The notes beneath the pieces are model-generated. The model saw nothing but the letters and a program-made list of their open reading frames with translations. It was not told the origin of the DNA and did not search any database. A stretch of DNA of 64,000 nt from a virus, in IMG/VR virus record IMGVR_UViG_3300048583_000222, positions 11,766-75,765 of that record; one strand, written 5' to 3'. A program made the position numbers and the translations under genes. Below, one piece after another: positions 3,001 to 57,785 of this stretch. Positions within the stretch are counted from its first letter, which is position 1, and the number at the start of each line of letters is the position of its first letter.

Positions 3001-6000
3001 CACGAAGTACGGCCGGTGCCTGGTTATCTGCTACCTGCCAGTCCAGATTGAATGCACGGTTATCGGTCACGATGGAACGGTGAGTAGGTTCGGTGAGGTT
3101 GTACTCATCACTCATCCTGTTGCCAAGCGTGTCTATGCGCGCATACTGAATGCCCGCCTCTTCATTTTCCGTAAGCTTCTTGTACAGTACCACATCACCA
3201 CTCTCCGTACGATGGGAGATGTACGGTGTGAAGTACTTCTTGATGCCTATGGTTACGATATATTTCTGCTGCTCTGCTGTAGGCCCGAGGTCCGGATCAG
3301 GATACGGGAAAGAGAAGAACTCAGGTACCCCTTCATAGGTACGACCCGTTTCCTTGAATCCTGTATCTATGGAGATGGCTTTCTCGGGGTTGTGCCTGAA
3401 CCACTGCTCGGTGAACACCCCGCTACTCAGCATGGAGTCCATGTTATTCTGCGCAGACTGCAATACGTTGAACCAGTTGGTCGCAGCCAGGTATCCAAAG
3501 GGTACATAGCGTACAAAGCTTTGGGCATCCTGTACGCCTCCGGTGAGGAATGCATAGCGGACCAGATCTTCCCCCAGCATGCGTACATTCTTATCCGGAC
3601 TGAGCAACAGGTCCAGCCAGGCCCGTACGTTCTCGGCATCGTCCATCCGTGTTACCTTGGCGGCGATGAAGTTCACCGAATGCGGGTCAAGTCCGTTACC
3701 CAGATCTGTATGCAGACGAGAGAGGAAGAAGTTGTTCTTGCCCCAGCTCAGCTGCGCTTCTGCTACGCGCTCTGCCAGTGATGGTCCATTTTCAGTAGCG
3801 TAGTACAGTCGTGCGCGTTCGGCAGTGATGTCTTCCACGCCCAGTGCCTGTCGTACGGCTTCGCTGTATACATAGGAACGTATGCCCTTCATCACGCTCT
3901 TCTGAATCTCCTCACTGATCTGGGTCATCGATTTACGATTCGTGTAGGACTTGATATGGGTCAGTGTGTGCAGGTACACTTGGCTATGCGGCAGGTAATT
4001 GTCGAATAGGGATAGTGCCAGTGAGTTCACGGTATCGAACAGGAATCCTTTCTCTCCACTTAGCAGGTCATTACCCCCGAGGATGACATCAGGTCCCAGT
4101 ACGATCCCTGCTTTCTCATCCTTGTCAATGACCTTGAACAAGCTGCCATCAGTACCCTTCACGTCTTGTGTGGTCAGTGCAGCCATCTCACTCATTCTTG
4201 TACCCACTGCATGGAATTCCTGGAATGCCCTGAGGATATCGCGTTGTGCCAGATAGTACTCACGCGTGTTCTTTGGCTTGTTGGCCATGTCAAGCAACTC
4301 TTTGGCGGTATATGCCTTGGCTTGTACCGGCTCTCCTTCTCCGATCTTCTTGCTAATCTCAGTGTAGAGCTGGTCGAATACGGACTGCTCGAGGTTAGGT
4401 ACATATCCGCTCAGCATATCCTGTCCGCGTTCCATCAGCAGATTGAATTGCCTGATGATGGGTTGGGACAACATGCGACTCACATAGGTGGTATTGACTG
4501 CTTTGCCTTCCTCAGTCTCGAGAGAAAGGATACCTGCAGCAGCCGGGTAAGTGTGCACAGTCAGGTTAATTTTATCGATCGTACGGTGCTTGGCGTGGTC
4601 AAGGAACTCCTGCAGCATAATGTTGATGTTGTCCATCTTCGTACGAGTCTCTGGAATTCCACTGGCGGGTACATAGACTGAAGTACCATAGCCAGACAGA
4701 TTCACCAATGATATCACACCGTCTTCGTCTTTGAAGATTTCAATAGGCGTTGGTATTTCTACCATCTCCTTGGTTTCTTCATTGTACTCCATAGTACCCA
4801 ACTTGAGGTCAAGGTGCTGGATGGTGGCGAGAAACTGATTGGTCTGTGCACCAAAGCCTACCAGGCTCTTGGCATCTTTCTGTGAAATGAAATCAGCCAA
4901 CTGACTGCTGGCCCCAAAGAAGTTACCCACGGCAGATGGTTTGGCCAGTTTCTTGGCTTCATCCTTAAGGTCAGGCTTGTCCAGCGGACTCATCATGACC
5001 GGGTACACGGAAGCTGCAGTGAGTATCTTGAAGTGCAGGTCAAAGTACTCCGCCATGATGCCGTCTGTCGCGGAAGCTGCTTTGTCGGTTATGGTATAGG
5101 GGCGACGATAGACGAAGAGTTTATCTACGTCAAAGTCAGACCCCATCTGTGTCGTGATGCCGGGAGGTACGATGATGGCGTCTCCCATATTATCAGGCAG
5201 AAAGCCGACGATCTTCATCGGGAGCATCGTGTTGTGCTTCGAAGTCGGGATACGGATACCAACCATCTCGAGTACTTCCAGGGGAAGCCTGGACATGTCC
5301 AGTGTACCATCCTCCAGCAGGAACTCGGTGATGACCATCTTCTGCCCGTCTTGGAAGAAGTGGAAGGGCACCAGTATCTCGGCCGGGGTCACCGTACCAT
5401 CTTCATTGAGTACAGGCATGCGCAACTCACGGGAGCCGTCATAGCCAGGTACCCAGGTTATTCCTGCGGTGGCGCCCAGTCCGGTGAGCATCCGGGTGAT
5501 ACCTACTGACGAGGCCTGTACGTATGACTTGCCCGGTACCTTGGTCTTCACCACGCCATCGATCATGCTCATCATGAGGTTGTGCAGTGGATCGGACAGT
5601 GAGGTGAAGAACAGTGGTGATATGGGACGGCCGTCTACCAGATGGGTGAGCGGAGCGAGTTCATTCTCTGAATAGCTTTTCTTCTTGCCCTCATCAATGA
5701 GACGCTTGATGAACTTGGCCGGATTGCGGAACCTGAACTTACCCTCGATCGCTTCGATGTCCAGTTCCTCTTTGAACTCCTCGATGTTCTCCTGTACCAT
5801 TTGGATACGAAGCGCTTCTTTTTTCTCCCGGATGTTGTCCCTGTTGTAGGTCTGCCCATCCATCAGCGTTACACTGAAGTTCTCAGGCAGGTCAGATACA
5901 ATAAGCTTGTTGGCCTGTGAGAAGATCTGGATCATGTCCTTGTTACGATCATAAGGTACTTCCTGCTGGATGCGGAATCCTTCGCGACTCAGGCGCTGTA

Positions 6001-9000
6001 CCGGCGCGAATTCTATGCTGTTGTAGTTGCCGTTCTTACCAAATGCCTGGAAGGGTTTGCCTGCACCGATCTTCTTGGCGGATATGAATTGTGCCCGGCG
6101 AATGCCGCGCTTCTCCATGTCCTTTCTCAGCTTATCCAGTTCTGTGCCGGCAGTGAAGCCAGCGTACAGTGGGATAGCAGAACTCTTCACGTAGTCATGC
6201 AACAGGGCACCGCGATCCACATTGGGACGCTTGCCATAGTACACGGGCTTGGTGATCTGCAGGGCAATGCGCTCGTGCCCTGCTCTGGTAAACTTTGCGA
6301 AGTTCGGGTCACGTACCAGTGCGATCATTTCATTGTACGTATCCTCGGCGAGCATGCCGAAGCGGAACATCACATCCAGATGCTCTTCCATGGTGACAAA
6401 TTCCTGTGCATCCGTTACGTTCACATCTTTGTATGCAGGTATGCCCTTGATGTAATCCAGCGCTACCGTGTAATCATCCAGTACAATGATATCATAGTAC
6501 ATCTGCTCGGCAGTCCACTCGGTTTCTTTTCCCGGAGCGATGGGGCCGGCCAAACGTTTCTCGTACTCGATGAGGGTGTCAGCTACTGACTTCTTGTACA
6601 CTTGTGCCGGGTCTCCGTACAGGAGCTGAGCCATGGATGTGTTGACCAGGAATGCGTTCATCGCGTAGTTCATCGCCACGAATTCAGAGAGTGCTTTGAG
6701 GTACGTTGGACGATCCACCCGTCGCTTATCGACTATGTACACATCCTTGCGTGACACGCTGATCCCGGCTTGGGTATTGGCTACCTCTTTGATGTAGCGC
6801 TCATTGAACAAGTGTTTGCCAGTAGTCATGTCGACCATGCCGGCTTCGTTGAACTTGCGCAGCTGTATGGCGGTCTCTTCTGTAATAAACTCGTTGAGCA
6901 TTCGCTTCACCAGCTTGTCGAAAGCTTCTGTTCCTTTTCCAGGTGCATTGATGACACCGTCGCTGATCCATATGGTGCCCAGTTCCTCTTCAGTGATTTC
7001 TCCGGCATCCCTTCTCGCCTTCATGTTGGCGTAGTTGAACTGCGGCATCATGAAGAAAAACTTCTTACCCTGCTCGTACTGCTGATGGTCATCGTATATG
7101 TGTTCAGCACTGTTGGCGATCCTGTCGAATTCACTTTCAAACACGCTGTACAGTCTTTCCATCAGTACCAGTGAAGGCTTTCCTACAGCACCGGTCGGTG
7201 TACGCGGGATGTTCATGAACACTGGTGTACGGGACTTGTCCGAGTGTGTAAGGCTCACGTAGTGGGACGATTCCCATCCATTGTTCATGTACATACCCAA
7301 GGCCATGAAGAGCTGGTCACGATCCGACATGTCAGTCCGCTCAGAGGCCGCTTTTCCCTTCATTTTCTTCAATCCCTCCAAATACAGCAGGTCGGCTTTC
7401 CTTCTGCTGGATGGATCATTCTCCCATACCTGCAGCAGCCAGTTGTTTCTGGCAAAGTCCGTATTTTTCAGCTGCTCTCTGTACACTCCTGACTCATCGA
7501 CCAGGTCCAGGAAAGCATTGCTGAGGTAACTGTTCAGGATGTAGTCCCACACATTGTTCCCGGCAAGGTCACGGTGCGAGCTGTTGTATAGCATGTCAGC
7601 ATGTCGTACGTAGATGCGACTGAGCATGTTCATGGTAGTATTCTCGGAGTACAGTGGATTGTTCTTCTCCAGCGTATTTTCAATGCCCTCCTCATCTTTT
7701 GTATTGAGCAGTTTAAGCAGGAACATGGAGAAGATACCATTACCTCCCCCGTCTTTTTTCTCAGACCACTCTTTGATTAGCATTTCCTCCCCAGACTTGT
7801 ACAGGGTCTCGTACATTATAGGTGTGAGCATGATGCCGTTGTACTCAAACATCTTGGTGACCAGCTCCTTGGCTGCCTTGAAATAGATACTCCGCAGTTT
7901 TGCAGCTCCTGGTCCTTTAGCTCCTTCTATCCTGCGCTGGTTCTTTGCTTTCAGCTCCTCATAGTCTGCCTTCAGTTCATCTACCTTAGCAGGGTCAATG
8001 ATATAGTAACCAGACTCTGTACGCTTCACCATAGGAGAACGCTTCTGGGCTTGCTTCCAGTTTTCCAGAACAAGCTTGCGGGCGGAGTATATGTTGGCAT
8101 TGATCGTACGTATCTCTGCGTTGTCGTCCCAGAGTTTGTACTGGATCAGTGCGTACTGTGTGTAGGACTTGGTCATCACGGTGACGAATTCCCGGCGAAT
8201 CTGTTCTGGGGTGGTGGAACTCTTCAAGCGCTGAGCCAGCTTGCGCAGGACAGGACTTCCGGATTCCAGTATTTCCATGTACTTGTCGAAGGAAGGTTTC
8301 GTGTTGGCGAGCATACCCGTGACGTTATCGTATAGGTTCTCCAGTTCAGCAAGGGTAGGGGTACCAATAAAAGAGGGTATGTTGACCAGACCACGCTCCT
8401 CTACAAACGGTACGATCTCCAGCAGCACATCGCCTTCCTTGGCTTCGTGTTTCTCCGCAGCGATCGCTGTGCCATCCGGACCAGTGCGCATGAAGTCCAG
8501 GTTCTCACGCTGATCACCTTCATTGTATTCCTTGGCTTCCTGTGCCGTCATGGGTTTTACTGGGCGAACCACATACCACGTGTCTCCAAGCTTGATGCTC
8601 CCGGAGTCCCCGGGTTTCAGGGAAAGGCCGATGTCGGCGAGCTGTTTTGGCGTGCGGACCGAGTACTTGCGGGTACCGTCAAGGATCTGCTGTATGTACA
8701 CATGCCCCAGCGGCAAGCCGATCACCTTGGGCTTGAGCAGAGGTCCTTCTTCCACATTCTCAGTAGCTGCTATGTAGAGCTTCAACCTGCCCGATGCCGT
8801 AGCTTTTGGGTCCAGGGTGAAGATCAGGTCATTGAAGTTCTCAATCGCCTTGGCTTCCGTGGATACAAGCTCGCCGTCAGTGAGCTGGTCTGTAGCCCCG
8901 TTGCTATCCAGTTCGTTGACCTTGATGCCATAGATGGCCAGACGACGAATGGTAGCCTTCATCAAATATTTCAGGGAGTACAATACATCCTCCATGTTGC

Positions 9001-11674: not shown

Positions 11675-14600
11675 TTATCCGCATTTAAGGAATGGATTGT
11701 GTCCATCAGCCAGATATGGAATATTTGCTTTGATCATTTCTCTGTAGACCTGATCAGGCGTTTTCCCATTCCGTACCTCAGACGGTGTGAAGGTATATAA
11801 ATCCTTCAATATCTTCATGGACAAAGGCTGCATATCTGCACTAGGCACGATGGAAGTTACGGTATGCCCTACAAGATCAATATTGGAGTTCAACTCCATG
11901 CCCAGCATCTCATTGGCAGCGTCCAGATCATCGGCACTGAACTCCTCCGAATCGGAGGTAGTGGGGGTGGTTACCTCAGGTATAAGGGTAGCCGTGACTG
12001 TCTGATCTTCCTTGAGTATAACAGTAGCGTCATCGAAGAAAGTGATCATCGGATTGGCAGCGTACACATACTTACCGGCAAGTTGGTTGCGCCCATCTAC
12101 GTATGTGGTGGCGTGAGATTTCACGTAAGCATTGTAGTTAGCATGCTTGTGCACCTTCCACCCACTGGTCTGGTATAGTACTTCCTGGAACTTCTGGTTG
12201 TTATTGATACCCATTACCTCATCCTTGGTGTAGTTCACGTTCCGGTACCGGGTAGCCAGCCCTGCTCTTAAAGCTTCTACGAATTCAGGAGATAGCTCCT
12301 TGTTGCGCAGGTTGGCTACAATGGGCTGCTGTCCTGAATTGGCAAAGCCGATCATGACTGTGGCCAGTCCAGTGGACGGGTCGGTGACATTAAACAGGAA
12401 GTTATTGTTATCCGCCTCTGGGTTATGTGCCGTGTGGGAGGCGTCAAAAGACTGCAGGTAAGTGTACTGCTGGGTGATGAACCGACGCAGGTGCGCAGCA
12501 TTGCCAAAATCGTAACCCGTACGGGCGAAGACATCTTTCAACTCTGCCTGTACATCCGCATCCTTGCTCTTCAGGTACAGCCAGATGGCCCGCTCTACAG
12601 TACGCAGGTCGAGCTCATTCTCCAGCTTGTCCATGTACAATGGAGATACGGTGACAGACCCATTGGCCATGGGGAGCACTACTACAGGGGCATTGTGCCA
12701 TCTGTCCAGTTCGTCTATCGTGTTGTTCACCTCGATTGGGTTGTTCCGAGCTGTGTTGACCACGGTCTGGTTGATCACCGCCAGAGAGAGTGTGGTATCG
12801 GGGAGCATGTCTGTTGCCGGCATGCGGGTGTACTTGGGCTTCTCTCCCGTGTTGTCCACGTGGAGGATTACCCTACCTGGGCCCTTGGCTTCTATGGTGA
12901 GTTGTACAGTACCGGCTTCAGAGATCAGCCTGCGCAGCTTACTCAAGCGCTCTTGTTGTATGGCAAGGTTGTCGATGATTGTACCGTCCTCCAGTTCGAT
13001 GGTCTCTACGATGTTGCGCATGCGCTCGGGACCGCCTGTTCCCGGGAATTGCTCCATCATCCAGTCCCCTGTAGCCAGATATCCGATTACGGTACCCCGC
13101 TCATCTACCAGACGTATGGGTACATTCATATGGTCAGTCACCTTACCATCAGGGTCCGTGAAATCGGAGAAGCTGATGTCCTGCAACTTGTTGGCATGCC
13201 CATGTACCTTACCCTTGCCCTGATAGTTCTTGTCCAGTTCCGCGGTGACCTTAGTACCAGGCTTCAGCTGGGTGGGATCGAGGATAGCTGGATTGAGATT
13301 TGGGTTGAGTCCAACACCTGCTATGCGGTAGTTCCCCTTATCATCGGTGTAGTCCACCGGGTTCAGGGTAGTGGTGTTCACTTTCAGCATACTTACTGCC
13401 TTGGCTTCGTAGTGGGACTTATCCTTACCAACCACAACATCCGGAGCATTGTCCGTCTCGGGTTGTTCAGGGTCTGTCACTACAGGGCCATGGGTAACCT
13501 CAGTCTCGGTCTTCTCAGGTTTCCCTGTCTTGGTACCCTCATCTGTATGGGTCTCCCCGGGAGTTTCCTGATCATCCTGCACGGTAGGCAGACTCTTGAT
13601 GTACTTGCGCAGGGCAGTCAGTGTGTCCATCACCTCATCAGAGAATATAAAGAACAATCCATCATCCAGTGCCTGCTGTGTTTCTGGCAAGTTGCGGAAG
13701 TCTATGTCGGGCAGATTCGGGTCCCGCTTCAGTGCTTCTTCGAATGCGGCAAAGGCAGAATGGGCCTCCGCAGGAATATTCTCCTCCAGTACTTTCAGGT
13801 ACTCAGCCTGCTCTTTGATCAGTACATCGATCTCGTCTTCCACCGGTGCTTCTGGAATAGGTACCGGAGGTGGCGTAACAGTCTGACTGGCAGCCAGTGC
13901 TTTCTCCACATCTGACTTTACAATCTGCTTTCCGTTACGACCAGTAGGTACAATGGTGTTGATGTCCAGTCCATTGAGCTCCGCCAGGGCACGTGCTGCA
14001 GGTGTGATACTCACCCCAGTTTTCGCAGCAGGTTTTCTGGTCTTAGGAGCCGGTGCCGTCCCTGGCGGTGGTACTGTACTTGTAGCTGCTTGTGCCGCCT
14101 GAGCTGCTTGCTCATTGGTTTCCTGCTGTGCGAGTATTTCAGCAGAGTTAAGCTTGAGGGCATCGTGCAACGCAAGTTCTTTTTGTTGTAGGTCATTGAG
14201 TGCAGATTTAAGGTTACTCAAATCGTACTTGTGCTTGAGCATCTTGGTCTTCCAGTTCAGGTTCCACATGGAATGTTCTGTCAGCTTCAATGCATTGATC
14301 TTCTGTATCACAGCAGTTATCCTGTCTTTGATTTGTACGATCTCCTTTTGGGTGGCGTCGAGTTCAACCTCGAGTTTCTGCTTGTGTTTATCCAGACTGG
14401 TCTTGTTGCGCTCTACATGAGCAGCTGCTGCATTGCGGGTAACCTGTGCCTGTAAAGCCACTTTACGATCTTCCTCAATCATCTTCTTACGCTGCTCGTC
14501 AATGGGCCCTTTGATCTTCTTCAGCAGCTTCTTCACGTTGTTGGAATCACTCATGATGTCGTTCAGGTTGGCCTGATTAGCCTGAATCCTTGAACGAAGT

Positions 14601-22171: not shown

Positions 22172-25100
22172 GCTACAATATTAATGGTGATGTAAAAGTC
22201 TGTCGTACCTCCTGTATCTGATGTGGCCCGGCAGTTAAGCTGGTACACATCTCCGATCTCCGGGAACAGGTTTCCATTTACGATCAGTTCTCGGGTAGCG
22301 GGATTTATGGTAAAGAAAGGCAGGGCTGCAGGTACCGTACTGAGAAGCGTGACACTGTCGACAAAGGTTCCACTTAAGGTAGTGAGGACGTAGTTGTTGT
22401 AGACAGAAGCTTCCAGGTCATACGTAAAGCCTACGATCACCGGTATCTTGACTTCATCGCAGCTCACTCCGCTAAGCACTACATTGTTGACGCCCCTGAA
22501 TTCCAGGATACGTCCGTCCATGTAGACATAGTCTCCTACCACCAGTGTAGGGATATCAGCATCCTCCAGGTTGAACCTGACTGCCTTAGAGGCCTTGGTA
22601 TACTTGCAGGTGAGTAACAGTCGCTTGAACTCCGGATCGTATCCTACGGTAATCCCATCCCCAATGAAGGTATTGGTACGGGGAGCGAAGGTCTTGATGA
22701 TCTCCAGGAATGTGTTGTACAGTCCGCCACCCAGATTCTCCGGCTTGGTTTTGTACATGAAGATCTCCTGACTATTGGCATCCAGGAAGAAGTACCCGGC
22801 TGGAGAGCGCAGGCAACTCAAGTCGTGCTGGGTACCAGCATAGCCTAGAGGAGCACTTTGGGCGTCTTGCGGATCGAACTGGAAGATGTCGGCCGAGCCC
22901 AGGGTCACCTGGAGCACGTCGCTTTCCAGCTTGGTCTTGTCTTGGGTCACCAGCAAAGCTGACTTGCAGTGGATCAGAAGTCTATCATCCTGCCCCTCGA
23001 GGTTGACGATCGTACCGACGTTCTTCTTGATTTCATAGTAATCCAGCGGCAGGAACGTACGCCAGCTTCGTGTCTTGTCTTGCCGGCCGAGCTGTCCTCC
23101 GCGGTGTATCCGGAAAGGGTGTATAGTGTTGACTTCGTTGTTCGTGTTGAAGATGCCGGTATCGACACTCAGCTCATTAAGGGCATTGAAGTCCTTGGAA
23201 TAGCCAAACTGATTGGGATCCTGCTTGAGGCTGTAATCGGTAATGTAGTTGTTGACGTCCTCCTTGACAATGGGCGAATTGGGATACCACTTGGAATACA
23301 CATTGCCCGGGGTCTCAAACCGTGCATAGAGGTTCGACGCCGCTTCACAGGCAATGCGCCTGACCACCTTGGTGCCAGACTTGTCCCCGAACTTCTGGTT
23401 GAACTGCATCCACCATCCATAGGTATGGAAGGAGTAATCCACAATGAAGGTATCTCCACCGAAGACTGTACTGGTTGTACCTACGACTTTGTCAGAAGCA
23501 GGGATGACTTTCTGGACCGTGAATGGGGCATAGACATCGTCTCGTACGCGCATCATGTTGGACAGATGGGTAACCTCGTGTGGGATACAAAGCCCGGCAC
23601 TTTGGTTATTCTCGTCTACGTCGTGCAGGTGCGTGGTGATGTCCGCAGTATCCATGACAGAGGCATTCAGCTTGCCGGCATAGTACGCTTCCAGATCTAT
23701 GTTGTGCCAGGCAGATACCTCTGTATTGTTGGGTACCAGCTGGGTCTCTGTTATGTTGCGTAGTCGTTTGGCAGAGGACACCACAGTGGGCGTCAGACCT
23801 TTTGCCAGATAGTCGATCAGGTATACGATCGGACCACGTACGTCGTTATTGCCCAGGTTGTTGTCCTCGATGAATCCTTCAGTCTGCAGCTGGGTGCGCT
23901 TAAGCTTGAGGTGTGTCGACAGGTAATACCCTGTGTCAGACAGTGCCGGCTTGTTGAACAGCAGGTCAAAGCCATGGAATCTCATCGCTTTGGTATCCAG
24001 TCCAAGGGCATTGTCCGGAGGATTACCATCTGGCTTTTTGGCTGCATGGAAGTTGCCTCCTGTAGATACGTATTTTGTACCGCCTCCGGTGAGGGTGAAT
24101 GCCCCACCATTGTAAGCAGCGTACTGTGCACTATGCATGAGCGCGCCTTGGGCCAGTACCGTGGCATTATTGAGGGTACGCTTGCCAAAGCCCAGCTGCC
24201 ATCCGTCGATCTGATCGGCGTACTCAGCCGGTATGATGACATTGGTCAGTTTGAGACCCAGCAGGTCAAGCTTGTTCTTTCCGTAGGTAGTGTCTATGGG
24301 ATACAGGTTTTCCTTGCACCAGGCAATGGAGGGCATGCGGTGATGCCGTACTTTCTGGTTGCGCAGGTTGACCCCACCCAACCCACCGGTACTGGAGTCA
24401 AAGCTCGGGTCGTCGGGATAGGTCTCGTTGTCGTTTTCCCAGTAGCCCATCTCTCCTTCGAGCTGTGCTGCATTGAAACTGGGGATGGTATCCTCTACCT
24501 GGAACTTCTTGGCAGTGATGCCTTGCGTATTGGCCAGGGTCGACGCGTCAGTCTCACCTGCCAGAGGAGCTCTGCCCGGGATGTGGAACCACTGGGTCCA
24601 TCCTCCGCGGGTGAGTGAGTATCTTATATAAGGTGCTACGACTTCTTCGTGCATCCAGCTACGCTTCTCTCCCCGTACGTGCTCCTGAGAAGGCGCCAGG
24701 GTATCAAGCAGTTCGCTTTTCCAGTTCACCCGGATCAGGTTGGCGTAGCGCTGCATGTTGATGGTCGGGGCACTCTCGAGATTCCCCAGATACAGGGCAT
24801 CGTTGAGTTGTCCGATCGTACCTACCTTGGTATAGAAGGCCTGTGGAATGAGTACATTCTCCAGTGTGGTATTCGTGGTAACCTCTGTACCGGTGTAGTT
24901 CAATGTCATCTCTTCCGACGTAATAGAAGCTTCTGGCAGCAGTTGCGGAGTACCATAGACTCCATTGACCTTGTAGAGGATCGCTGCCTGTACAAAATCA
25001 TAGGTGAGGTCCAGGTTGGTCATGGTCAGTACCAGTGACTTGTCGGTCACTGAGTCAGTCGCTCCTGCTACGATCGTCACTCCGGTATTGCCCACGAAGC

Positions 25101-29708: not shown

Positions 29709-30653
29709 TTACGCCACTGGCTTACGACGCGCGGTCTTCGGCTTAGCCTGGATGTCCTGCAGGTTCCCACTCCATATCTGGAGGTTCTCGCTGTATTCTT
29801 TGTCCTGGAGTACCTTGACTGCTTCGTCGAGATCCTTGGCGATCATTTTATTGGTAGAAGCTTCGAATATCCGGTCTCCCACATTCTTGAAGATGCCGTT
29901 CTGTATGAACGACTTGATCTTCACGCGCAGTTCGAAGTTGTCTGTCTTATAGACCTTGTTGAAGTTTGCTGCATCGGTGTCAGCAATCGTACGCAGGCGC
30001 TTAGCACGTTGTGCTGGGGCAGAAGCTCCACCGAAGTCACGTGGATCGATGCCGAACATAATCAGCATACCACTGACTTTGGTATCATCTTCTTTGATGG
30101 CCAGATAAGTCGCAATGGCCTGATCTTGCTGAGAAGTGGTTTCGACCAGTACCTTGTCAGCCACTTCCGAATCAAAGATATAGTACAGCTTCAGCGGATC
30201 TCCCACAGAGCTCTCTTTGTCGATGGCTACCTGCGGATGCTCACGTGCGTGGCGATAGCGGACATAGTCCATGATTTCAATGGGCAGGTTCTGCATACCC
30301 TCTTTGTCTTTGTAGGTCACGGGCTTGTTGTTGTCCAGCAGCAGTCCGATCTCCAGGGCCCTACCTTCGGGTCCAAATGGAATCTGTGTGAACATCTCCT
30401 GATAGAACTTGTTGACCTTCTCGCGGAAGAAGCGGTCATCGGCTTCTGCATCAATGATCAGTGGGAGCAGTACGCGCTGTTCGTTGAAGTCCAGTCCGGA
30501 GCCTACAACTTTAGAACTGATGCTCTTCCAGTACGAGCCTATGGTCTTTCGACTCATGCTCATGAATTCCTTTGCACCGGTCTGTACAGAGTCCATGAAG
30601 GTCTCGGTACGTACGATGTTTACAATTTTGCTGTTAGGATGTTTTGCTGTCAT
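29709..30653 (-). CDS. Conserved crAss-like protein downstream of MCP (putative structural/assembly)
   Basis: FYQEMFTQIP..GRALEIGL, PIEIMDYVRYRHAREHPQVA and KLYYIFD motifs; position next to the MCP. Confidence 0.6.
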   Translation of the reverse strand: MTAKHPNSKIVNIVRTETFMDSVQTGAKEFMSMSRKTIGSYWKSISSKVVGSGLDFNEQRVLLPLIIDAEADDRFFREKVNKFYQEMFTQIPFGPEGRALEIGLLLDNNKPVTYKDKEGMQNLPIEIMDYVRYRHAREHPQVAIDKESSVGDPLKLYYIFDSEVADKVLVETTSQQDQAIATYLAIKEDDTKVSGMLIMFGIDPRDFGGASAPAQRAKRLRTIADTDAANFNKVYKTDNFELRVKIKSFIQNGIFKNVGDRIFEASTNKMIAKDLDEAVKVLQDKEYSENLQIWSGNLQDIQAKPKTARRKPVA

Positions 30654-47516: not shown

Positions 47517-47933
47517 ATGTGGATAATAATAGCTACAATCATAGGGGCACTGCTGGGAGCTGGATTGATGTACATTGCCCGGGAAAAAGAGGTGATTGAC
47601 ACGAAGAGGGACTATAGTGACCGGTTCGAGACTGCAAAGATGCTGTACAAGGAGCTCCTAACTTCCAAGGAGCGTGTTATTGCCTATCAGCGCGAAGACT
47701 TTGTGGATAAGCTGGAAACATACAAGCAACGCTTAAAAGATGTAGAGAAATTACACGCAGATTCCCGCTCTTTGGAATCACTTGCATTCTTTGAGTATGC
47801 CATCATGCGTACTATCCCCAATGTCTTTACCGACACCGACTGGGATATTATACGTGGTAAGTATGCAGTTATGTATGATGATTTCTTAATCGGCCTCAAG
47901 GCCAAAGAGGGGGTAGAGCCATGTTTCAAATAA
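47517..47933 (+). CDS. Membrane-anchored coiled-coil protein
   Basis: N-terminal TM WIIIATIIGALLGAGLMYIA followed by a charged helix. Confidence 0.6.
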   Translation: MWIIIATIIGALLGAGLMYIAREKEVIDTKRDYSDRFETAKMLYKELLTSKERVIAYQREDFVDKLETYKQRLKDVEKLHADSRSLESLAFFEYAIMRTIPNVFTDTDWDIIRGKYAVMYDDFLIGLKAKEGVEPCFK

Positions 47934-48346
47934 CATCATCCCCCTCAGTGTTTGTACTACTGGCATTGCTTGGCATCGCGTGCTTTGCGTGTACAATACT
48001 CGCTATTAAGATACAGACTGATAAAGCACACATGAAAGATATGTGGGATTTGACCGATAAACTGCTGGCCACTCGTACTAAAGACCAGGAAAAGATCAGT
48101 GATTTGGAGGGTATTCTGTGGGAATCTGAGGTAGAACTCAAAGCCCTGAAGGCTGTACAGTCACATACCACGCAGCTCCCTGCCCGTAATAAGGATGGTG
48201 TACAACTCACCGTACCCAGCTATCTGATAGCTATGGATTTTGCGGAGTATGCCCTTGCACGAGCTACATCTGTAGAGAATCTATCTAATCTGTGGAGTAC
48301 ATATTTTGAGGACTGCGCCAAACGCGCTGCACAAAATCCTCAGTAA
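47921..48346 (+). CDS. Membrane-anchored coiled-coil protein
   Basis: N-terminal TM VFVLLALLGIACFACTILAI followed by a coiled coil. Confidence 0.6.
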   Translation: MFQITSSPSVFVLLALLGIACFACTILAIKIQTDKAHMKDMWDLTDKLLATRTKDQEKISDLEGILWESEVELKALKAVQSHTTQLPARNKDGVQLTVPSYLIAMDFAEYALARATSVENLSNLWSTYFEDCAKRAAQNPQ

Positions 48347-48405
48347 CTCGCTCAATTGAGCTAAACTCTCATCAGACGCCCGGTGTTTCTACACGTGGGT
48401 TTTTA

Positions 48406-48552
48406 TTCGGCACATGATGGAAGGGCAAACATAGGGGACTCACACCCGGTATCGCTTAAACGTGTGAGCGCAGGCTGTACTCAACGTTGGTACAGCGTCA
48501 GGTAAACCTGAGCGCAAAGCTTTACTTGGAGGTTCGAATCCTCCTGGCCGAA
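48406..48552 (+). ncRNA. tRNA-Leu-like RNA with anticodon arm replaced by a multi-hairpin insert (about 147 nt)
   Basis: Acceptor TTCGGC(A)CA/TGGCCGAA, Leu-type D arm ATGATGGAAGGGCAAACAT, perfect T arm GGAGG TTCGAAT CCTCC, GCAA-capped variable arm; three extra hairpins inside. Confidence 0.65.
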
Positions 48553-48563
48553 CAAAATTGAGA

Positions 48564-48720
48564 TGTACATGCGTAAAAGCTGGAAGGGTAATTCCTATGT
48601 GCAAAAACAGAACGTAGTAGTAATACTACCGAGTGTAGTTAGTATGGTAATGGCTACACGCAGACAGCACCATAAGCCTCTGTGCATCTCAATCTTATTG
48701 ACAGCCTGGAAAGACAGGCA
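48564..48720 (+). ncRNA. Unassigned structured RNA between the tRNA-like RNA and tRNA-Phe
   Basis: Serial hairpins TGTACAT/ATGTGCA, GTAGT/ACTAC, GTGTAG/CTACAC, GCAGA/TCTGT, TCAAT/ATTGA and GCCTG GAAAGA CAGGC; no convincing ORF. Confidence 0.4.
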
Positions 48721-48723
48721 AAA

Positions 48724-48796
48724 GGAGCAATAGCAAAGTTGGTCTATGCGGCGGACTGAAAATCCGAAGATTGTGGTTCGATCCCACATTGCTCCA
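48724..48796 (+). tRNA. trnF: tRNA-Phe(GAA)
   Basis: GGAGCAA/TTGCTCC acceptor, CGGA CT GAA AA TCCG anticodon arm, TGTGG TTCGATC CCACA T arm; CCA not encoded (A-CAA). Confidence 0.9.
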
Positions 48797-48874
48797 CAAA
48801 CTAAAGTAGGTTTTTCACAGGGACTTGATCTCCTAGCCTGTTTCTACATGCTGGACTTTTTTATCTTTACCTAC

Positions 48875-49177
48875 ATGAAAAGTATCCTGTTCCTACTCCA
48901 ACTGGTATGGTGTACCACTGTGCATGCGCAGAAACACGCCGGGCCTATCTTAGAAGAGCACCCCATTTACGGCCCTACCAGCTCACTGCTGGGGGTAATG
49001 CGCAGATGGAATCCCTCTTACTTTTATCCGCTCGACTCCTCCTTCCACAAGTACATGAACAAGTACGATCGTGAGTTACTCTTCGATCCTGCACGACTGG
49101 ACATGTATCTCAAGGACAGGAAGTTCGTGTGGTTCCGCCATTCAGACACCACATTTCTACCTTTTAAATTAAACTGA
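48875..49177 (+). CDS. Putative secreted protein
   Basis: MKSILFLLQLVWCTTVHAQ signal-like N-terminus; the track's start at 48746 overlaps the tRNA and is wrong. Confidence 0.55.
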   Translation: MKSILFLLQLVWCTTVHAQKHAGPILEEHPIYGPTSSLLGVMRRWNPSYFYPLDSSFHKYMNKYDRELLFDPARLDMYLKDRKFVWFRHSDTTFLPFKLN

Positions 49178-49572
49178 TGGATAAACATCTCATCGCCCCA
49201 GCACATGTAAAGACCTTCGTATTCGGAGGCAGAGCCAAATTCATTGTACAGCATGGTCAGCAGGAGTACACACTCAGGGTAGCTGTGACTTCGTACGACA
49301 AGCACAAGTTCAACATCTACCTGAACCAGGAATGGATGGGCGCTATCTATAAAGTGGCAGGCGTTACGCTGGACCAAAAGATTGGTACAGCTGAGCAGCG
49401 ACTTGTTGTTCAGGAAATCCTTGACAGTGTACTGTACGAGAACTATCCGCATGACATGCATTTCTACCACATCGGTATTTGCGGTATCTGTGGCCGTGAC
49501 CTGACTGACCCGTATTCCATTCATATTGGTATTGGTCCCACATGCAGAAAGCGTGTAGGGCTGGTAAAATAA
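49177..49572 (+). CDS. DUF6011-like zinc-binding protein
   Basis: C-terminal CGICGRDLTDPYSIHIGIGPTC motif. Confidence 0.75.
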   Translation: MDKHLIAPAHVKTFVFGGRAKFIVQHGQQEYTLRVAVTSYDKHKFNIYLNQEWMGAIYKVAGVTLDQKIGTAEQRLVVQEILDSVLYENYPHDMHFYHIGICGICGRDLTDPYSIHIGIGPTCRKRVGLVK

Positions 49573-53641: not shown

Positions 53642-54064
53642 ATGGTAAGCGTAAAAGAGCTTTCCGAAGGACGGATACTGATCATGGGAGGGTCACGTTA
53701 CGAGTACCCTGATCCGGTTATGGATTACTGTCCTATAGCAGGCAAACCTACAAAGGAACGCAGCCTGGAGATGGTACTGATGCCGGGCAAGACCGTGGAG
53801 GACCTTAGGGTAATCCTACGTAAGTATCCGCAAATCAGGATTCAGCACATCATTGCCCACGAGCCCTACATCACTGAACGTGAACAGCAGCTGATCTTCG
53901 GTCATATCAAGACCATACAGGAGGTAGCTGCCTGGAAACGCATCAAGGTGGAGGGTGTGGATTATATCGACGAGTTCGGCTTTCATGTCTACGTACGGAG
54001 CGAACTTGATTTCTTTGGCAACATGTCGGACGTAGATCTCCGGTATGACAACGAACCTGTATGA
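53642..54064 (+). CDS. Hypothetical protein
   Basis: Internal ATG of ORF 53603..54064; ATGA overlap with polA. Confidence 0.55.
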   Translation: MVSVKELSEGRILIMGGSRYEYPDPVMDYCPIAGKPTKERSLEMVLMPGKTVEDLRVILRKYPQIRIQHIIAHEPYITEREQQLIFGHIKTIQEVAAWKRIKVEGVDYIDEFGFHVYVRSELDFFGNMSDVDLRYDNEPV

Positions 54065-55365
54065 TTTACGTAGTAGCACGTCAGTGTAATAACGCAACTT
54101 TCGACCAGTTCATGTACTGGCAGAAAAACCAGAATCGCTTCATGGTGGACAGTGAGACTACGGTACATGAGCAGTGGTGCGAACGTCAGCTGGTGCTCAT
54201 CCAGTTCGGTAACGGTACAGATGAGTGGCTGCTGCAGTGGAGCTTCCTCACAGACATGCAGAAGGCACGGGTGCGCGGTATCCTGTTTGACGACAGGCTC
54301 AAAGTATTGCACAATGCCTATTTTGATTGTATCGTGTTCCGCTTTGCCGGTATGGTCATGCGCAACGTGTACTGTACTATGGTAGCGGAAATGGGACTGA
54401 ACTGTGGCAAGCTTAACCGGGAAGACGAAGAGGAGGAGGATGTGGAAGGTGCTGAGTTGGGGTTCTATTCCCTGGCTGGGCTATTGGACCGCAGACTCAA
54501 TCTTCGTATCTCCAAGGAAGCGCAGACCAGATTCGGGGACGACATCCTCACTCCTGAGAAAGTAGAGTATGCTGCTATCGATGTACGGCACCTGTTCAAG
54601 ATCCAGGAACTGCAGCGTCTCGACCTCCATGAAACAGATCTGGAGATGACCTGTGCACTGGACTGTGCAGCCATTCCGGGACTGGCGGAGATGACCTACA
54701 ATGGAATGCCGCTGGATACTGTAGCATGGCGTGCCAACATTGACCTGGCCTGGCCGGTAGTACAGCACTCTATTGCCCAGCTCGAGCAACGGGTGAAAGC
54801 AGAGCCCAAGCTACTGGCTAAGGTCATTGAGATGCAGCGCTACAGTGATGAGGATAAGATCGTACTGAACACCAACTCGTTTAACCACCTGCGTACCATC
54901 TTTGCGCATGTATTCCCTGAAGTAGGCGGTGCCACACGTGCGATCGTTCGTGGGTTCATGAAACATCATGACATTCAGGATCCTGAAATACGCACCGTGT
55001 TCCAGCACTTCGAAGCAGGGGATACGGAACCTCTGAAGATGTACCTGTACAATCACCACCGGGATTTCCTGATCAGTAATGACTGGCTCATCCCGGCAGG
55101 AGCCATCACCATCAACTGGAATTCCCAGCAACAAGTACTGGCTCTGCTGCAGGTACTGGACAAGAAGCTTCAAGCCTTAGATAAACAGTCCATGAGTAAG
55201 TTCTCACATCCTATAGGTCTTGACCTTAAGGATTATAAAGATTCCATGAAACTGGTTACTACCTACGGCGAGAAGTTCATTGAACAGCACGTGGAAAGCG
55301 ATGGCATGGTACGAACCACGTTCAACGTGATCGTATCTACCGGTCGACTCAGCAGTCGCAAGCCT
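54061..55365 (+). CDS. polA: Family A DNA polymerase, exon 1 (3'-5' exonuclease and thumb; 435 codons)
   Basis: FMVDSET (ExoI), LHNAYFD (ExoII), YAAID (ExoIII); ends at STGRLSSRKP, and exon 2 resumes NMQNIP. Confidence 0.92.
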
Positions 55366-55547
55366 AAATATATTGGGCAGCGTAGCCGTGAGGCACGTAA
55401 AAAATATCGGGTGAACTCAGGGAAAGCTGAAATGCCAATCCTGAGCCAAGCTGTAGAAGGACTAGTGAATCTACAGAAGGTGCAGAGACTAGCGTGTGAG
55501 ACCAACAATAATCACGCAAATAGCGCCCGATTACTTGAAAGGAATGT

Positions 55548-55578
55548 TTTGAATATACGGTCATTAGCCGTATGTTTG
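55548..55578 (+). promoter_or_regulatory. Intron-internal Bacteroidota promoter (-33 TTTG, 19-nt spacer, -7 TATGTTTG)
   Basis: Full consensus with correct spacing; ATG of the endonuclease 4 nt after the -7 box. Confidence 0.7.
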
Positions 55579-55582
55579 TAGT

Positions 55583-56323
55583 ATGAAAAGATGGAACATA
55601 AACATCAGCAAAGAAACGATTGAGGAAATGCAGCGAGCAGGCTATACACAGCTAGAAATGGCATCCAAATTAGGGGTATCAGTGTCTGTGGTGGAACGTC
55701 GGATCAAGAAATTCAACCTACAGGGGTACAGTCCTGTCAGGTATAATCTTATGACCCCGAATAACCCTGTATTTTGCTATTTACTCGGCTGGTTTGCAGC
55801 TGATGGGTACTTGACTAAGCACAACAGGGTTAGTCTTCGTACGTATGAGCACGATGTCGTTGACAAACTGAGTAGTTACTTTGGTACACGCAAATATGAA
55901 ATACGTAGAGAAGGTAAGTGTAGTACACACGAACTGTATTTTGCACAAGCTCCTGCAATTTTCAAAGAAATCTGTGGACAAGGTAAAACCAGAGATTGTC
56001 AAGTACCCGCTGTTCAGTATTTTGATATGTTTCTTAGAGGAGTTATTGAAGGTGATGGTACAATAAGACCCTTACAACACAAAGGAGGAGGGCTCGTTCG
56101 TATCTTCACTTGTTCAGAAAACTTCGCTTTAGAACTACAAGCACGATGTCCTTATCCGTTACGTCTTCGCAAAGATCGTATGGGATGGGAACTGAGTTCA
56201 AACTCCACACAGTTCTTGTCTTATGTGTACACAAATCATCTTGATTTTGTGTGTTCGCGTAAGTTCAAACGTGTGCAACCTCGCATTCAAGTAAATGATA
56301 TAGTCCAACCTAATGGAAAATGA
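55583..56323 (+). CDS. Intron-encoded LAGLIDADG homing endonuclease with N-terminal HTH
   Basis: YLLGWFAADGYL and FLRGVIEGDGTI double motif; HTH TQLEMASKLGVSVSVVERRI. Confidence 0.9.
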   Translation: MKRWNINISKETIEEMQRAGYTQLEMASKLGVSVSVVERRIKKFNLQGYSPVRYNLMTPNNPVFCYLLGWFAADGYLTKHNRVSLRTYEHDVVDKLSSYFGTRKYEIRREGKCSTHELYFAQAPAIFKEICGQGKTRDCQVPAVQYFDMFLRGVIEGDGTIRPLQHKGGGLVRIFTCSENFALELQARCPYPLRLRKDRMGWELSSNSTQFLSYVYTNHLDFVCSRKFKRVQPRIQVNDIVQPNGK

Positions 56324-56339
56324 ACCATTAGATAAGTTG

Positions 56340-56663
56340 AATATGCAGAACATTCCGGCTAAGGAAGCAGTAGGTAATCGTTACCGCAACTGTTTTGTAG
56401 CAGAGGATGGCTGGGTGTATGTGGACAGTGACTATGCTTCCCAGGAGCTGGTGGTGATTGCCTTCATATCGGGAGATCCGGTATGGATGGATGCACTGCA
56501 AAGAGGTAAGGACCTGCATAGTGTATGTGCAGAGGTAGTGTACAAGGATCTCTGGAAGCGTTCTGCTGATAGTGATTGTGCGTACTACCATGACGGACAG
56601 AAGAAGTGTAAGTGCAAAGCCCATAAAAAGCTGAGGGATGGTATCAAAACCATCAACTTCGGT
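56340..56663 (+). CDS. polA: Family A DNA polymerase, exon 2 (motif A to motif B; 108 codons)
   Basis: NMQNIP, DSDYASQELVVIA (motif A), DLHS and KTINFG. Confidence 0.93.
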
Positions 56664-56673
56664 TAAATTAAAG

Positions 56674-56681
56674 TATCTTTG
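56674..56681 (+). promoter_or_regulatory. Intron-internal -7 promoter element (TATCTTTG) in the P1 loop
   Basis: Exact TAnnTTTG; ATG 4 nt downstream, the same geometry as intron 1. Confidence 0.6.
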
Positions 56682-56685
56682 TAGA

Positions 56686-57204
56686 ATGAAATCACAAAGT
56701 AGCCAGGCCGAAGTAAAACTTTCCAAATTCGGGGAACTCTCAGCAAGTAACGTTGGAGACAATCCCGAGCCAAGCACTGTAGAGAAGTCTGCAGAGGCGT
56801 GTGTAGAGACTAGACGGAAAGTGTGTATTAAATGTGGGGGAGACATACCCTCAAGGAAGTACAGCAACGCAAAATACTGTAGTGATAAATGCAGAAGTGC
56901 ATTCATATCACTCAGACATGCACATCGTACCGGCCGCATCAAGAATCCTAATGTAGGTTCTGGAGGAGCCCAGCAAGGACAAGCCAATCATCAGTACAAG
57001 ACTGGTATAGGCATGTACACTAAGCTGGGATTCGCTGCGCACGGTAAGATTTGCAACAGGTGCGGAGCTACAGCTACCTTGATCCATCACAAGGATCACA
57101 ACCGGTTGAACAATCAGGTTGATAATCTTGAGCCGTTGTGCAAACGGTGCCACCAAGAACATCACTGTGTTCGTGATCTGGAAGGCAAATACACAAAGGG
57201 ATAG
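56686..57204 (+). CDS. Intron-encoded zinc-finger/HNH homing endonuclease
   Basis: CIKC..AKYCSDKC zinc finger and CNRC..IHHKDHNRLNNQVDNLEPLCKRCH HNH motif; start could alternatively be GTG at 56821. Confidence 0.88.
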   Translation: MKSQSSQAEVKLSKFGELSASNVGDNPEPSTVEKSAEACVETRRKVCIKCGGDIPSRKYSNAKYCSDKCRSAFISLRHAHRTGRIKNPNVGSGGAQQGQANHQYKTGIGMYTKLGFAAHGKICNRCGATATLIHHKDHNRLNNQVDNLEPLCKRCHQEHHCVRDLEGKYTKG

Positions 57205-57236
57205 TCCACGCTGTCAGGAAACTGACAGAAGCCGTG

Positions 57237-57785
57237 TTGGCATACGGCATGAGCAAGTACAAGCTTTCTGCGAGTCTGTCCATTTCAGTACCCGATGCAG
57301 ACAAGCTGATCACCGAGTACTTCACCCGGTTCCCTAAGATCAAGAAAGCACTGACGTACATGGGCCTGTTCGGTGTACGTAAAGGCTACATTCAGACACT
57401 TGCCCCGTTCTTTCGCAAGCGGTGGTTCCCGTACTGGAAATTCGCACGTCGTAACATCGACGCACATATCCAGGGAGTCCAGTACGACAGTACACTGGGC
57501 AGTATAGAACGGGCAAGTAAGAACATGCCAGTCCAAGGCAGTTCAGCGGACATGACCAAAGTTGCTATCTGGATGATGCATGAGTACATTCACCTGAATG
57601 CACTATCGCACAAAGTCCGGTTGGTAATGCAGGTACATGACCAGCTAACCACGAGGGCACGGAATGATTATGCAGAGCAATGGAAGGAAACCATGCACCA
57701 GCTCATGCTGGATGCTGCAAAGTTCACCATCACCAATGGCCTGTTAGGGGCTGAGACAAACATCACAAACGTATGGACCAAGTAA
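57237..57785 (+). CDS. polA: Family A DNA polymerase, exon 3 (spliced product about 725 aa)
   Basis: LAYGMS, YFTRFP, GYIQTL..RKRW, ERASKNMPVQGSSADMTK and MQVHDQL (motif C). Confidence 0.93.
   Translation: MAYGMSKYKLSASLSISVPDADKLITEYFTRFPKIKKALTYMGLFGVRKGYIQTLAPFFRKRWFPYWKFARRNIDAHIQGVQYDSTLGSIERASKNMPVQGSSADMTKVAIWMMHEYIHLNALSHKVRLVMQVHDQLTTRARNDYAEQWKETMHQLMLDAAKFTITNGLLGAETNITNVWTK

Follow-up and report, generated by a model that had tools for sequence, protein, structure and literature searches.

RNA C and RNA D of phage T4 and RNA1, RNA2 and RNA3 of phage T5 have been known since the 1970s-80s without an assigned function. In T4, RNA D and RNA C (species 1, rnaC), of 119 and 139 nt, are arranged in tandem after tRNA-Arg, and the literature gives no known role for either (PMC3014915, PMC9697503). 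T5 RNA1, located at 30501-30644 of NC_005859 (L033 10502-10645) between tRNA-His and tRNA-Ser, is annotated as a "tRNA-like stable RNA with unknown functions", and RNA2 likewise. RNA1 carries the tRNA-Leu D arm CCGGAATTGGTAGACGG and the stem ACUGC/GCGGU, the loop of which consists of a 40-nt insert followed by CUUAAAA. ARAGORN is silent on RNA1 and returns a tRNA-Leu(taa) once the 40-nt insert is deleted.

A 147-nt element is found at 48406-48552, on the plus strand, of the window, which is the whole 64,000-nt stretch analysed here (positions 11,766 to 75,765 of the IMG/VR virus record IMGVR_UViG_3300048583_000222). It is considered probable that this element is a conserved, non-decoding derivative of tRNA-Leu(UAA). 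The record, a 95.7-kb and 100%-complete genome, encodes major head, portal and terminase proteins that are crAss-type according to PHROGs, and its capsid protein is ~30% identical to those in records of crAss-like phages of Bacteroides and of Flavobacterium phages. Parts of the locus occur in sequencing runs of metagenomes from sediment and groundwater. The element is surrounded by a block of small plus-strand ORFs without known function, upstream of a family-A DNA polymerase gene, and the ORF upstream of the element is an orphan. Pfam and PHROGs revealed no tRNA-related enzyme among the neighbouring and other scanned phage proteins.

The polymerase gene itself is split (54061-57785) by at least one intervening sequence. 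It contains a LAGLIDADG-like ORF (55583-56323), then an HNH-like ORF (56638-57204) that lies inside an Rfam group I intron match (56655-57228), and the C-terminal polymerase exon (57234-57785). Outside the window, the structural module includes a 405-aa protein that carries collagen triple-helix repeats (Pfam E = 1e-29) and is encoded on the minus strand at G000 85346-86563 (L032 10346-11563).

All parts of the element lie on the plus strand and are numbered here with 48406 as idx 1. The acceptor 5' strand (TTCGGC, a bulged A, then CA; 48406-48414) pairs with 48545-48552 through TTCGGC/GCCGAA (idx 1-6/142-147), C8-G141 and A9-T140, leaving A7 bulged. An earlier note, made from the letters of the window, had described an 8-bp acceptor with one bulge, which is indeed present as a 6-bp core plus two pairs past the bulged A. 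In another register the stem has 7 bp including two mismatches, and the acceptor 3' strand with the discriminator (48545-48553) has its A at 48552 in this 7-bp register. The acceptor is followed by U8-G9, a D arm of class-II type (ATG/GAAGGGCAAA/CAT, with a 3-bp stem and a 10-nt loop) and A26 at 48415-48433, confirming the Leu-type D arm of the earlier note. ARAGORN uses this segment as the D arm of the trimmed construct described below, and R1, a covariance model built from the element alone, aligns it with the corresponding arm of T4 tRNA-Leu.

Insert 1, a GGGGA spacer (48434-48438), separates position 26 from the anticodon stem and needs removal for ARAGORN to recognize a tRNA-Leu. The stretch AGGGGACT, previously taken as the start of the anticodon arm, is not that start; GGGGA is a surplus spacer. 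Assigned from the R1 alignment and the deletion constructs, the anticodon arm extends over 48439-48468 and comprises a 7-bp stem, CTCACAC/GTGTGAG (idx 34-40/57-63), and a 16-nt loop. The loop is composed of insert 2, the 9-nt CCGGTATCG (48446-48454), followed by CTTAAAC (48455-48461), which reads as C32, U33, UAA, A37 and C38. Rather than being replaced, as the earlier note had it, the anticodon arm is thus kept but disabled, the first hairpin being the anticodon stem and its loop ending in CUUAAAC.

Insert 3 is a 46-nt branched domain (48469-48514) at the variable-arm site, outlined from pair probabilities and placed at the exact exit point of the class-II variable arm. It is closed by CGC/GCG and holds two hairpins, GCTGTAC/GTACAGC at 48474-48496 (idx 69-75/85-91) and TCAGG-TAAA-CCTGA at 48498-48511 (idx 93-106). 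What had been called a GCAA variable arm turned out to be an unstructured 13-nt remnant, CAAAGCTTTACTT (48515-48527), which ARAGORN leaves as the variable region in the trimmed construct. Together with the preceding GCG, the remnant shares 13/17 identical positions with T4 tRNA-Leu across the variable arm and junction, by hand count on the model alignment. The T arm, GGAGG-TTCGAAT-CCTCC (48528-48544), is supported by sequence, genome scan and pair probability. The three hairpins and perfect T arm of the earlier note are all present in the sequence. CCA is encoded by neither the element nor the neighbouring tRNA-Phe, and the trailer A-CAAA is common to both.

In the partition function, the pair probabilities amount to 0.90 for the 6-bp acceptor core, 0.91 for the T arm, 0.97 for the second hairpin, 0.90 for the third and 0.71 for the CGC/GCG helix closing the 46-nt domain. 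Two features of the fold speak against the reading as a tRNA-Leu derivative. The anticodon-stem hairpin is a minority fold of the thermodynamic ensemble, with a probability of only 0.08 in the window sequence and 0.46 in the variant of the relatives, the rival fold being formed by GGG/CCC plus UCGC/GUGA. The base of the acceptor stem is also imperfect, and a T>C change of the relatives at 48545 weakens it further. An outer stem between GGGG (48434-48437) and CTTT (48520-48523) costs 2.6 kcal/mol at a probability of ~0 and was kept as an alternative only, while an 11-codon GCA-to-TAA frame within the hairpins looks like chance and is devoid of tmRNA context.

The element is not a chance match. 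An acceptor and T arm of such quality are expected ~0.01 times by chance in the genome, and a whole-genome scan for TTCGA-type T loops detected the element and tRNA-Phe only. R1 was run unfiltered over the T4 and T5 tRNA clusters (33 tRNAs), where T4 tRNA-Leu(UAA) ranked first with 24.7 bits (E ~1e-5) and all others reached at most 18.6 bits. Next came a T5 stretch across tRNA-Ala and tRNA-Leu (18.6 bits) and T5 tRNA-Ser3 (15.7 bits); Leu and Ser tRNAs are both class-II. Under stricter filters, R1 gave one weak match in E. coli K-12. In the R1 alignment, the anticodon loop of the T4 tRNA falls on CUUAAAC (48455-48461), which adjoins the 3' strand of the first hairpin on its 5' side, and therefore the first hairpin is read as the anticodon stem of the tRNA itself, extended to 7 bp. 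When the element was aligned to T5 RNA1 and Leu tRNAs by MAFFT, its 5' half was wrongly placed, and this alignment was set aside.

In silico removal of 48434-48438, 48446-48454 and 48469-48514 (GGGGA, 9 nt and 46 nt, together the 60 extra nt over a canonical tRNA-Leu) resulted in an 87-nt tRNA-Leu(taa) called by ARAGORN at the default threshold. As a control, random triple deletions of the same sizes yielded an ARAGORN call in 4/3000 cases, 4/4 of them Leu(taa), and no single deletion gave a tRNA call. By descent, as distinct from function, the element belongs to the tRNA-Leu(UAA) lineage, and the tRNA-Leu origin proposed in the earlier note is borne out by both the R1 ranking and the three-block deletion.

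As it stands in the genome, the element is recognized as none of the established RNA classes searched for. At its default threshold ARAGORN calls the neighbouring tRNA-Phe only, a failure on the element that had been predicted, and RF00005 gives no match to the element even with E up to 10. Within 47800-49400, Rfam with E up to 10 returned a sub-threshold tRNA-Sec alignment (22.6 bits, cutoff 47) and noise only, with no match to skipping-rope, DUF2693-FD, salivarius-1 or YrlA, the presence of these families in Rfam 15 being assumed. The tmRNA mode of ARAGORN was empty, no Rfam tmRNA match was obtained and pair 3/70 is C-G; the earlier note had pointed to the lack of a tmRNA tag frame. An intron-containing tRNA is not found either, as three separate blocks must go and a group I core is absent according to Rfam. 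With introns allowed, ARAGORN was empty by default and gave only a poor tRNA-Cys(aca) with a 50-nt intron at a lowered threshold.

Conservation was assessed with two close relatives, X1 and X2, which are Logan contigs from two sediment runs. X1 differs from the element by 2 substitutions in 138 nt. X2 shows 3 interior changes in 133 nt; 5 of its 8 total differences are too near the contig ends to read and are not listed, so that compensatory acceptor changes are not readable there. The X2 contigs of neighbouring ORFs differ at 19/165 and 18/134 positions (37/299, ~12%), significantly more than the element (Fisher p = 5e-4). In X1, the element is less diverged than the adjacent structured RNA, a difference that is borderline (p = 0.05). 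The variable sites are three, namely 48453 in the 9-nt insert, the wobble base 48457 (T>G) and the T-stem/acceptor junction 48545 (T>C in both relatives), and with only three of them no covariation support is available for any helix of the element.

These comparisons bear on the view that the element is a decaying tRNA-Leu pseudogene, functionless and with accumulated insertions. Such decay would agree with the acceptor bulge and mismatches, with the rejection of the element by ARAGORN and Rfam and with its absence from two more distant crAss-like genomes, G001 and G002. It is unlikely nevertheless, since the element is far more conserved in X2 than the flanking coding DNA and has diverged less in X1 than its structured neighbour, the inner hairpins and T arm are all intact, and the 46-nt domain is unchanged in both relatives. 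According to the earlier note, an ordinary tRNA-Leu in relatives would mark a decaying pseudogene; the close relatives X1 and X2 keep the same odd RNA instead. The low divergence could be due in part to recent cassette transfer rather than selection.

The wobble base is U in the window and G in both X1 and X2, a difference among relatives that would fit a non-decoding loop. Decoding on the ribosome is implausible in view of the three insertions, and the 16-nt loop together with the varying wobble base likewise suggests that the RNA does not decode. A working tRNA-Leu would have to lose the three blocks post-transcriptionally or tolerate the expanded loop. Although the trimmed sequence is a recognizable tRNA-Leu(taa) and group I introns occur elsewhere in the phage, this is very unlikely, because group I introns are far larger than the three blocks (5, 9 and 46 nt), the wobble change of the relatives from UAA to GAA would set a Phe anticodon on a Leu body, and two mismatches stay in the acceptor of the trimmed construct. 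Moreover, no protein-dependent splicing of tRNAs is known from bacteria.

Wider searches turned up no further copy of the element, which counts against its reading as a conserved tRNA-Leu derivative, as do its absence from G001 and G002 and the lack of a tRNA-related enzyme among the scanned phage proteins. Exact or degenerate motif patterns had zero matches in IMG/VR, and in JGI metagenomes they had 8 chance matches and zero homologues, the first search pattern being blind to the T>C variant of the relatives. In BLAST comparisons with 50,697 phage records, the whole region and its separate 5' and 3' parts matched tRNA-Phe and generic T arms only. Among GTDB genomes (185,579 species), both the 24-mer of T arm plus acceptor and the tRNA-Phe core had 0 matches. 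The 24-mer result concerns the idea that the element is a leftover tRNA 3' half serving as a phage attachment site, which is attractive in that the attachment sites of phages are often copies of a tRNA 3' end. With no genome of those species carrying the 24-mer, both acceptor strands and a D arm present, and no integrase seen among the proteins scanned, an attachment site is extremely unlikely.

The element heads an array of three RNA units, which follows a terminator hairpin and runs in the order element, second structured RNA and tRNA-Phe. The terminator-like hairpin, CCCGGTGT-ttct-ACACGTGGG plus a T-run (48379-48405, plus strand), abuts the 5' end of the element and received no score in a simple terminator scan because of an internal mismatch. 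In X2, the sequence upstream of 48402 is unrelated and still ends in a GC-rich hairpin plus short T-run, with a different GC hairpin at the place of 48379-48405; therefore the RNA behaves as a module following a terminator-like hairpin. A near-identical terminator hairpin plus T-run, with stem differences that compensate, is found in the relative L008, at 3945-3975, after tRNA-Gln.

The second structured RNA (48557-48693, plus strand; z-score -4.25) has a multi-branched predicted fold closed by a 13-bp helix. The distal closing helix changes from ...GAGATGTACA / TGTGCATCTC... in the window to ...GAGAGTGTG / CACATTCTC... in X1, with both strands changed and pairing kept, and a 56-codon frame overlapping this RNA is shifted in X1. 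No Rfam match was found for it, and no homologue in G001 or G002. The last unit is an ordinary tRNA-Phe(GAA) (48724-48797, plus strand), called by ARAGORN and scoring 63.4 bits with the Rfam tRNA model, with the element 171 nt upstream on the same strand. Such an order of units is in keeping with a polycistronic precursor RNA that is cleaved where the tRNAs begin and end. No host-type promoter was recognized at the array. Two groundwater contigs, X3 (5961 nt) and X4 (165 nt), share 54-57 nt identical to the tRNA-Phe core 48731-48787 within unrelated flanks; they may carry the tRNA-Phe of a host or of another phage, and the exact 57-mer is in no GTDB genome.

Models R1 and R2 detected no homologue of the element in the full genomes of G001, whose polymerase is 56% identical, and G002. 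In G001, an odd tRNA-like RNA nonetheless lies in the corresponding region, bordered by homologues of the ORFs that flank the element in the window. It comprises a structured RNA (L008 2745-2887; z = -3.9) followed by a 35-nt bare acceptor/T-arm minihelix, CGGGGAG..ACAGG-TTCGACT-CCTGT-CTCCCCG, and the whole RNA lies just after a terminator hairpin. This arrangement lends some weight to the proposal that the element is mainly a processing punctuation, the tRNA-like fold of which would attract RNase P and RNase Z and thereby free the 48557-48693 RNA with defined ends, in analogy to mascRNA at the 3' end of MALAT1. The position of the array between a terminator hairpin and tRNA-Phe, as well as the direct joining of the structured RNA to a bare minihelix in L008, are what such punctuation would look like. 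A minihelix as in L008 would however be enough for that purpose, and the conserved D arm, the kept anticodon heptamer and the invariant 46-nt domain are left without explanation, which makes punctuation an improbable role.

In G002, the neighbourhood test matched the UDG-family gene alone. At 24437-24561 of this genome (L025 5437-5561) lies a 125-nt RNA that is uncalled by ARAGORN. Its D arm matches that of tRNA-Leu genes annotated in phages, its "anticodon" helix of 8 bp ends, once more, in a 16-nt loop, and its variable arm is oversized. In L002, ARAGORN reports an 84-nt "tRNA-Thr(ggt)" at 7831-7914 with the T loop TGCAAGT and a D loop without GG, which may be another aberrant tRNA-like gene.

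Returning to the non-decoding tRNA-Leu derivative, a pathway can be proposed in which host RNase P would cut the 5' end of the element, while its 3' end would be finished by RNase Z or by exonucleases, together with the CCA-adding enzyme, the product being a stable L-shaped RNA. Such an RNA might pass for tRNA-Leu and engage a factor that binds this tRNA, be it LeuRS or a host nuclease directed at tRNAs; alternatively, the stable tRNA frame might serve to display the inserted domain. Bacterial LeuRS does not read the anticodon. The identity of E. coli tRNA-Leu, reportedly established by Asahara et al. in 1993, is said to reside in A73, A14, A15-U48 and G18G19. In the 7-bp register the element keeps all of these LeuRS identity elements. 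With these identity elements kept and LeuRS blind to the anticodon, charging or binding, or a nuclease decoy, is conceivable as a speculation. A putative function as a tRNA-Leu mimic or decoy is accordingly offered as a best guess, and a tentative one.

A bolder generalization, which must be regarded as doubtful, is that the element, T5 RNA1 and the 125-nt RNA of G002 form a recurrent class of non-decoding Leu-shaped RNAs that evolved independently in unrelated phages as decoys or sponges, exploiting the indifference of bacterial LeuRS to the anticodon. If so, the RNA would be charged or bound like tRNA-Leu and kept off the ribosome, it would serve as a sponge for LeuRS or for a tRNA-Leu-directed host defence nuclease, and the inserts, placed at fixed sites (31/32 and the variable arm), would disable decoding and carry specificity. 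Whatever the function, the reappearance of a tRNA upon removal of the inserts offers a diagnostic for systematic gene finding, which is useful because standard tRNA and Rfam annotation overlooks such genes.

Compared with a canonical class-II tRNA-Leu(UAA), such as that of T4, the element shares the acceptor, U8-G9, the 3-bp D stem with its GAA..GG..A loop, the CUUAAA loop, the variable-arm remnant, the T arm and A73, and departs from it in the 60 extra nt, the 16-nt anticodon loop and the mismatches at the acceptor base. As in tmRNA and YrlA-type Y RNAs, the acceptor/T-arm module may be a handle for tRNA-processing or tRNA-binding proteins; unlike tmRNA, the element is without a G3-U70 pair, and the ends of the YrlA RNA are situated across from its tRNA-like domain rather than in the acceptor stem.

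The kind of RNA is an old one, that of phage tRNA-like stable RNAs, and the design is shared with T5 RNA1. The proposal of a new tRNA-scaffolded ncRNA class in the earlier note was therefore too strong, since T5 RNA1 has the same design and T4 RNA C is an acceptor/T-arm RNA in a tRNA cluster. In the literature searched, no reading of T5 RNA1 or of the element as an insert-disabled tRNA-Leu(UAA) was found. T4 RNA C is the looser parallel. Like the element, it combines an imperfect acceptor-like stem, a canonical T arm (CCGGG-UUCGAAU-CCCGG) and inner hairpins within a tRNA cluster, but it has no recognizable D arm, anticodon heptamer or Leu signature, and R1 matches its T arm only (9.2 bits).

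T5 RNA1 stands closer. With ~144 nt it is similar in length to the element, and both RNAs lie in a phage tRNA cluster and possess a tRNA-Leu shell with an insert immediately 5' of C32, which amounts to 9 nt before CTTAAAC in the element and 40 nt before CTTAAAA in T5 RNA1. They differ in that T5 RNA1 contains a single insert, a 40-nt hairpin, and its variable arm is normal, whereas the element has three inserts, including the 46-nt branched domain, and a 7-bp anticodon stem; the host is E. coli for T5 and probably a member of Bacteroidota for the phage of the element. Outside the tRNA shell no homology was found between the two, R1 matching the T arm of T5 RNA1 only (6.8 bits), and because R1 finds no likeness past the T arm, convergence is possible as judged from the sequences. 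A Crassvirales phage of sediment or groundwater thus has the design of T5 RNA1, with a tRNA-Leu(UAA) body, a disabling loop insert at the same site and a place in a tRNA array, and this shared design suggests a general, possibly convergent phage strategy based on tRNA-Leu.
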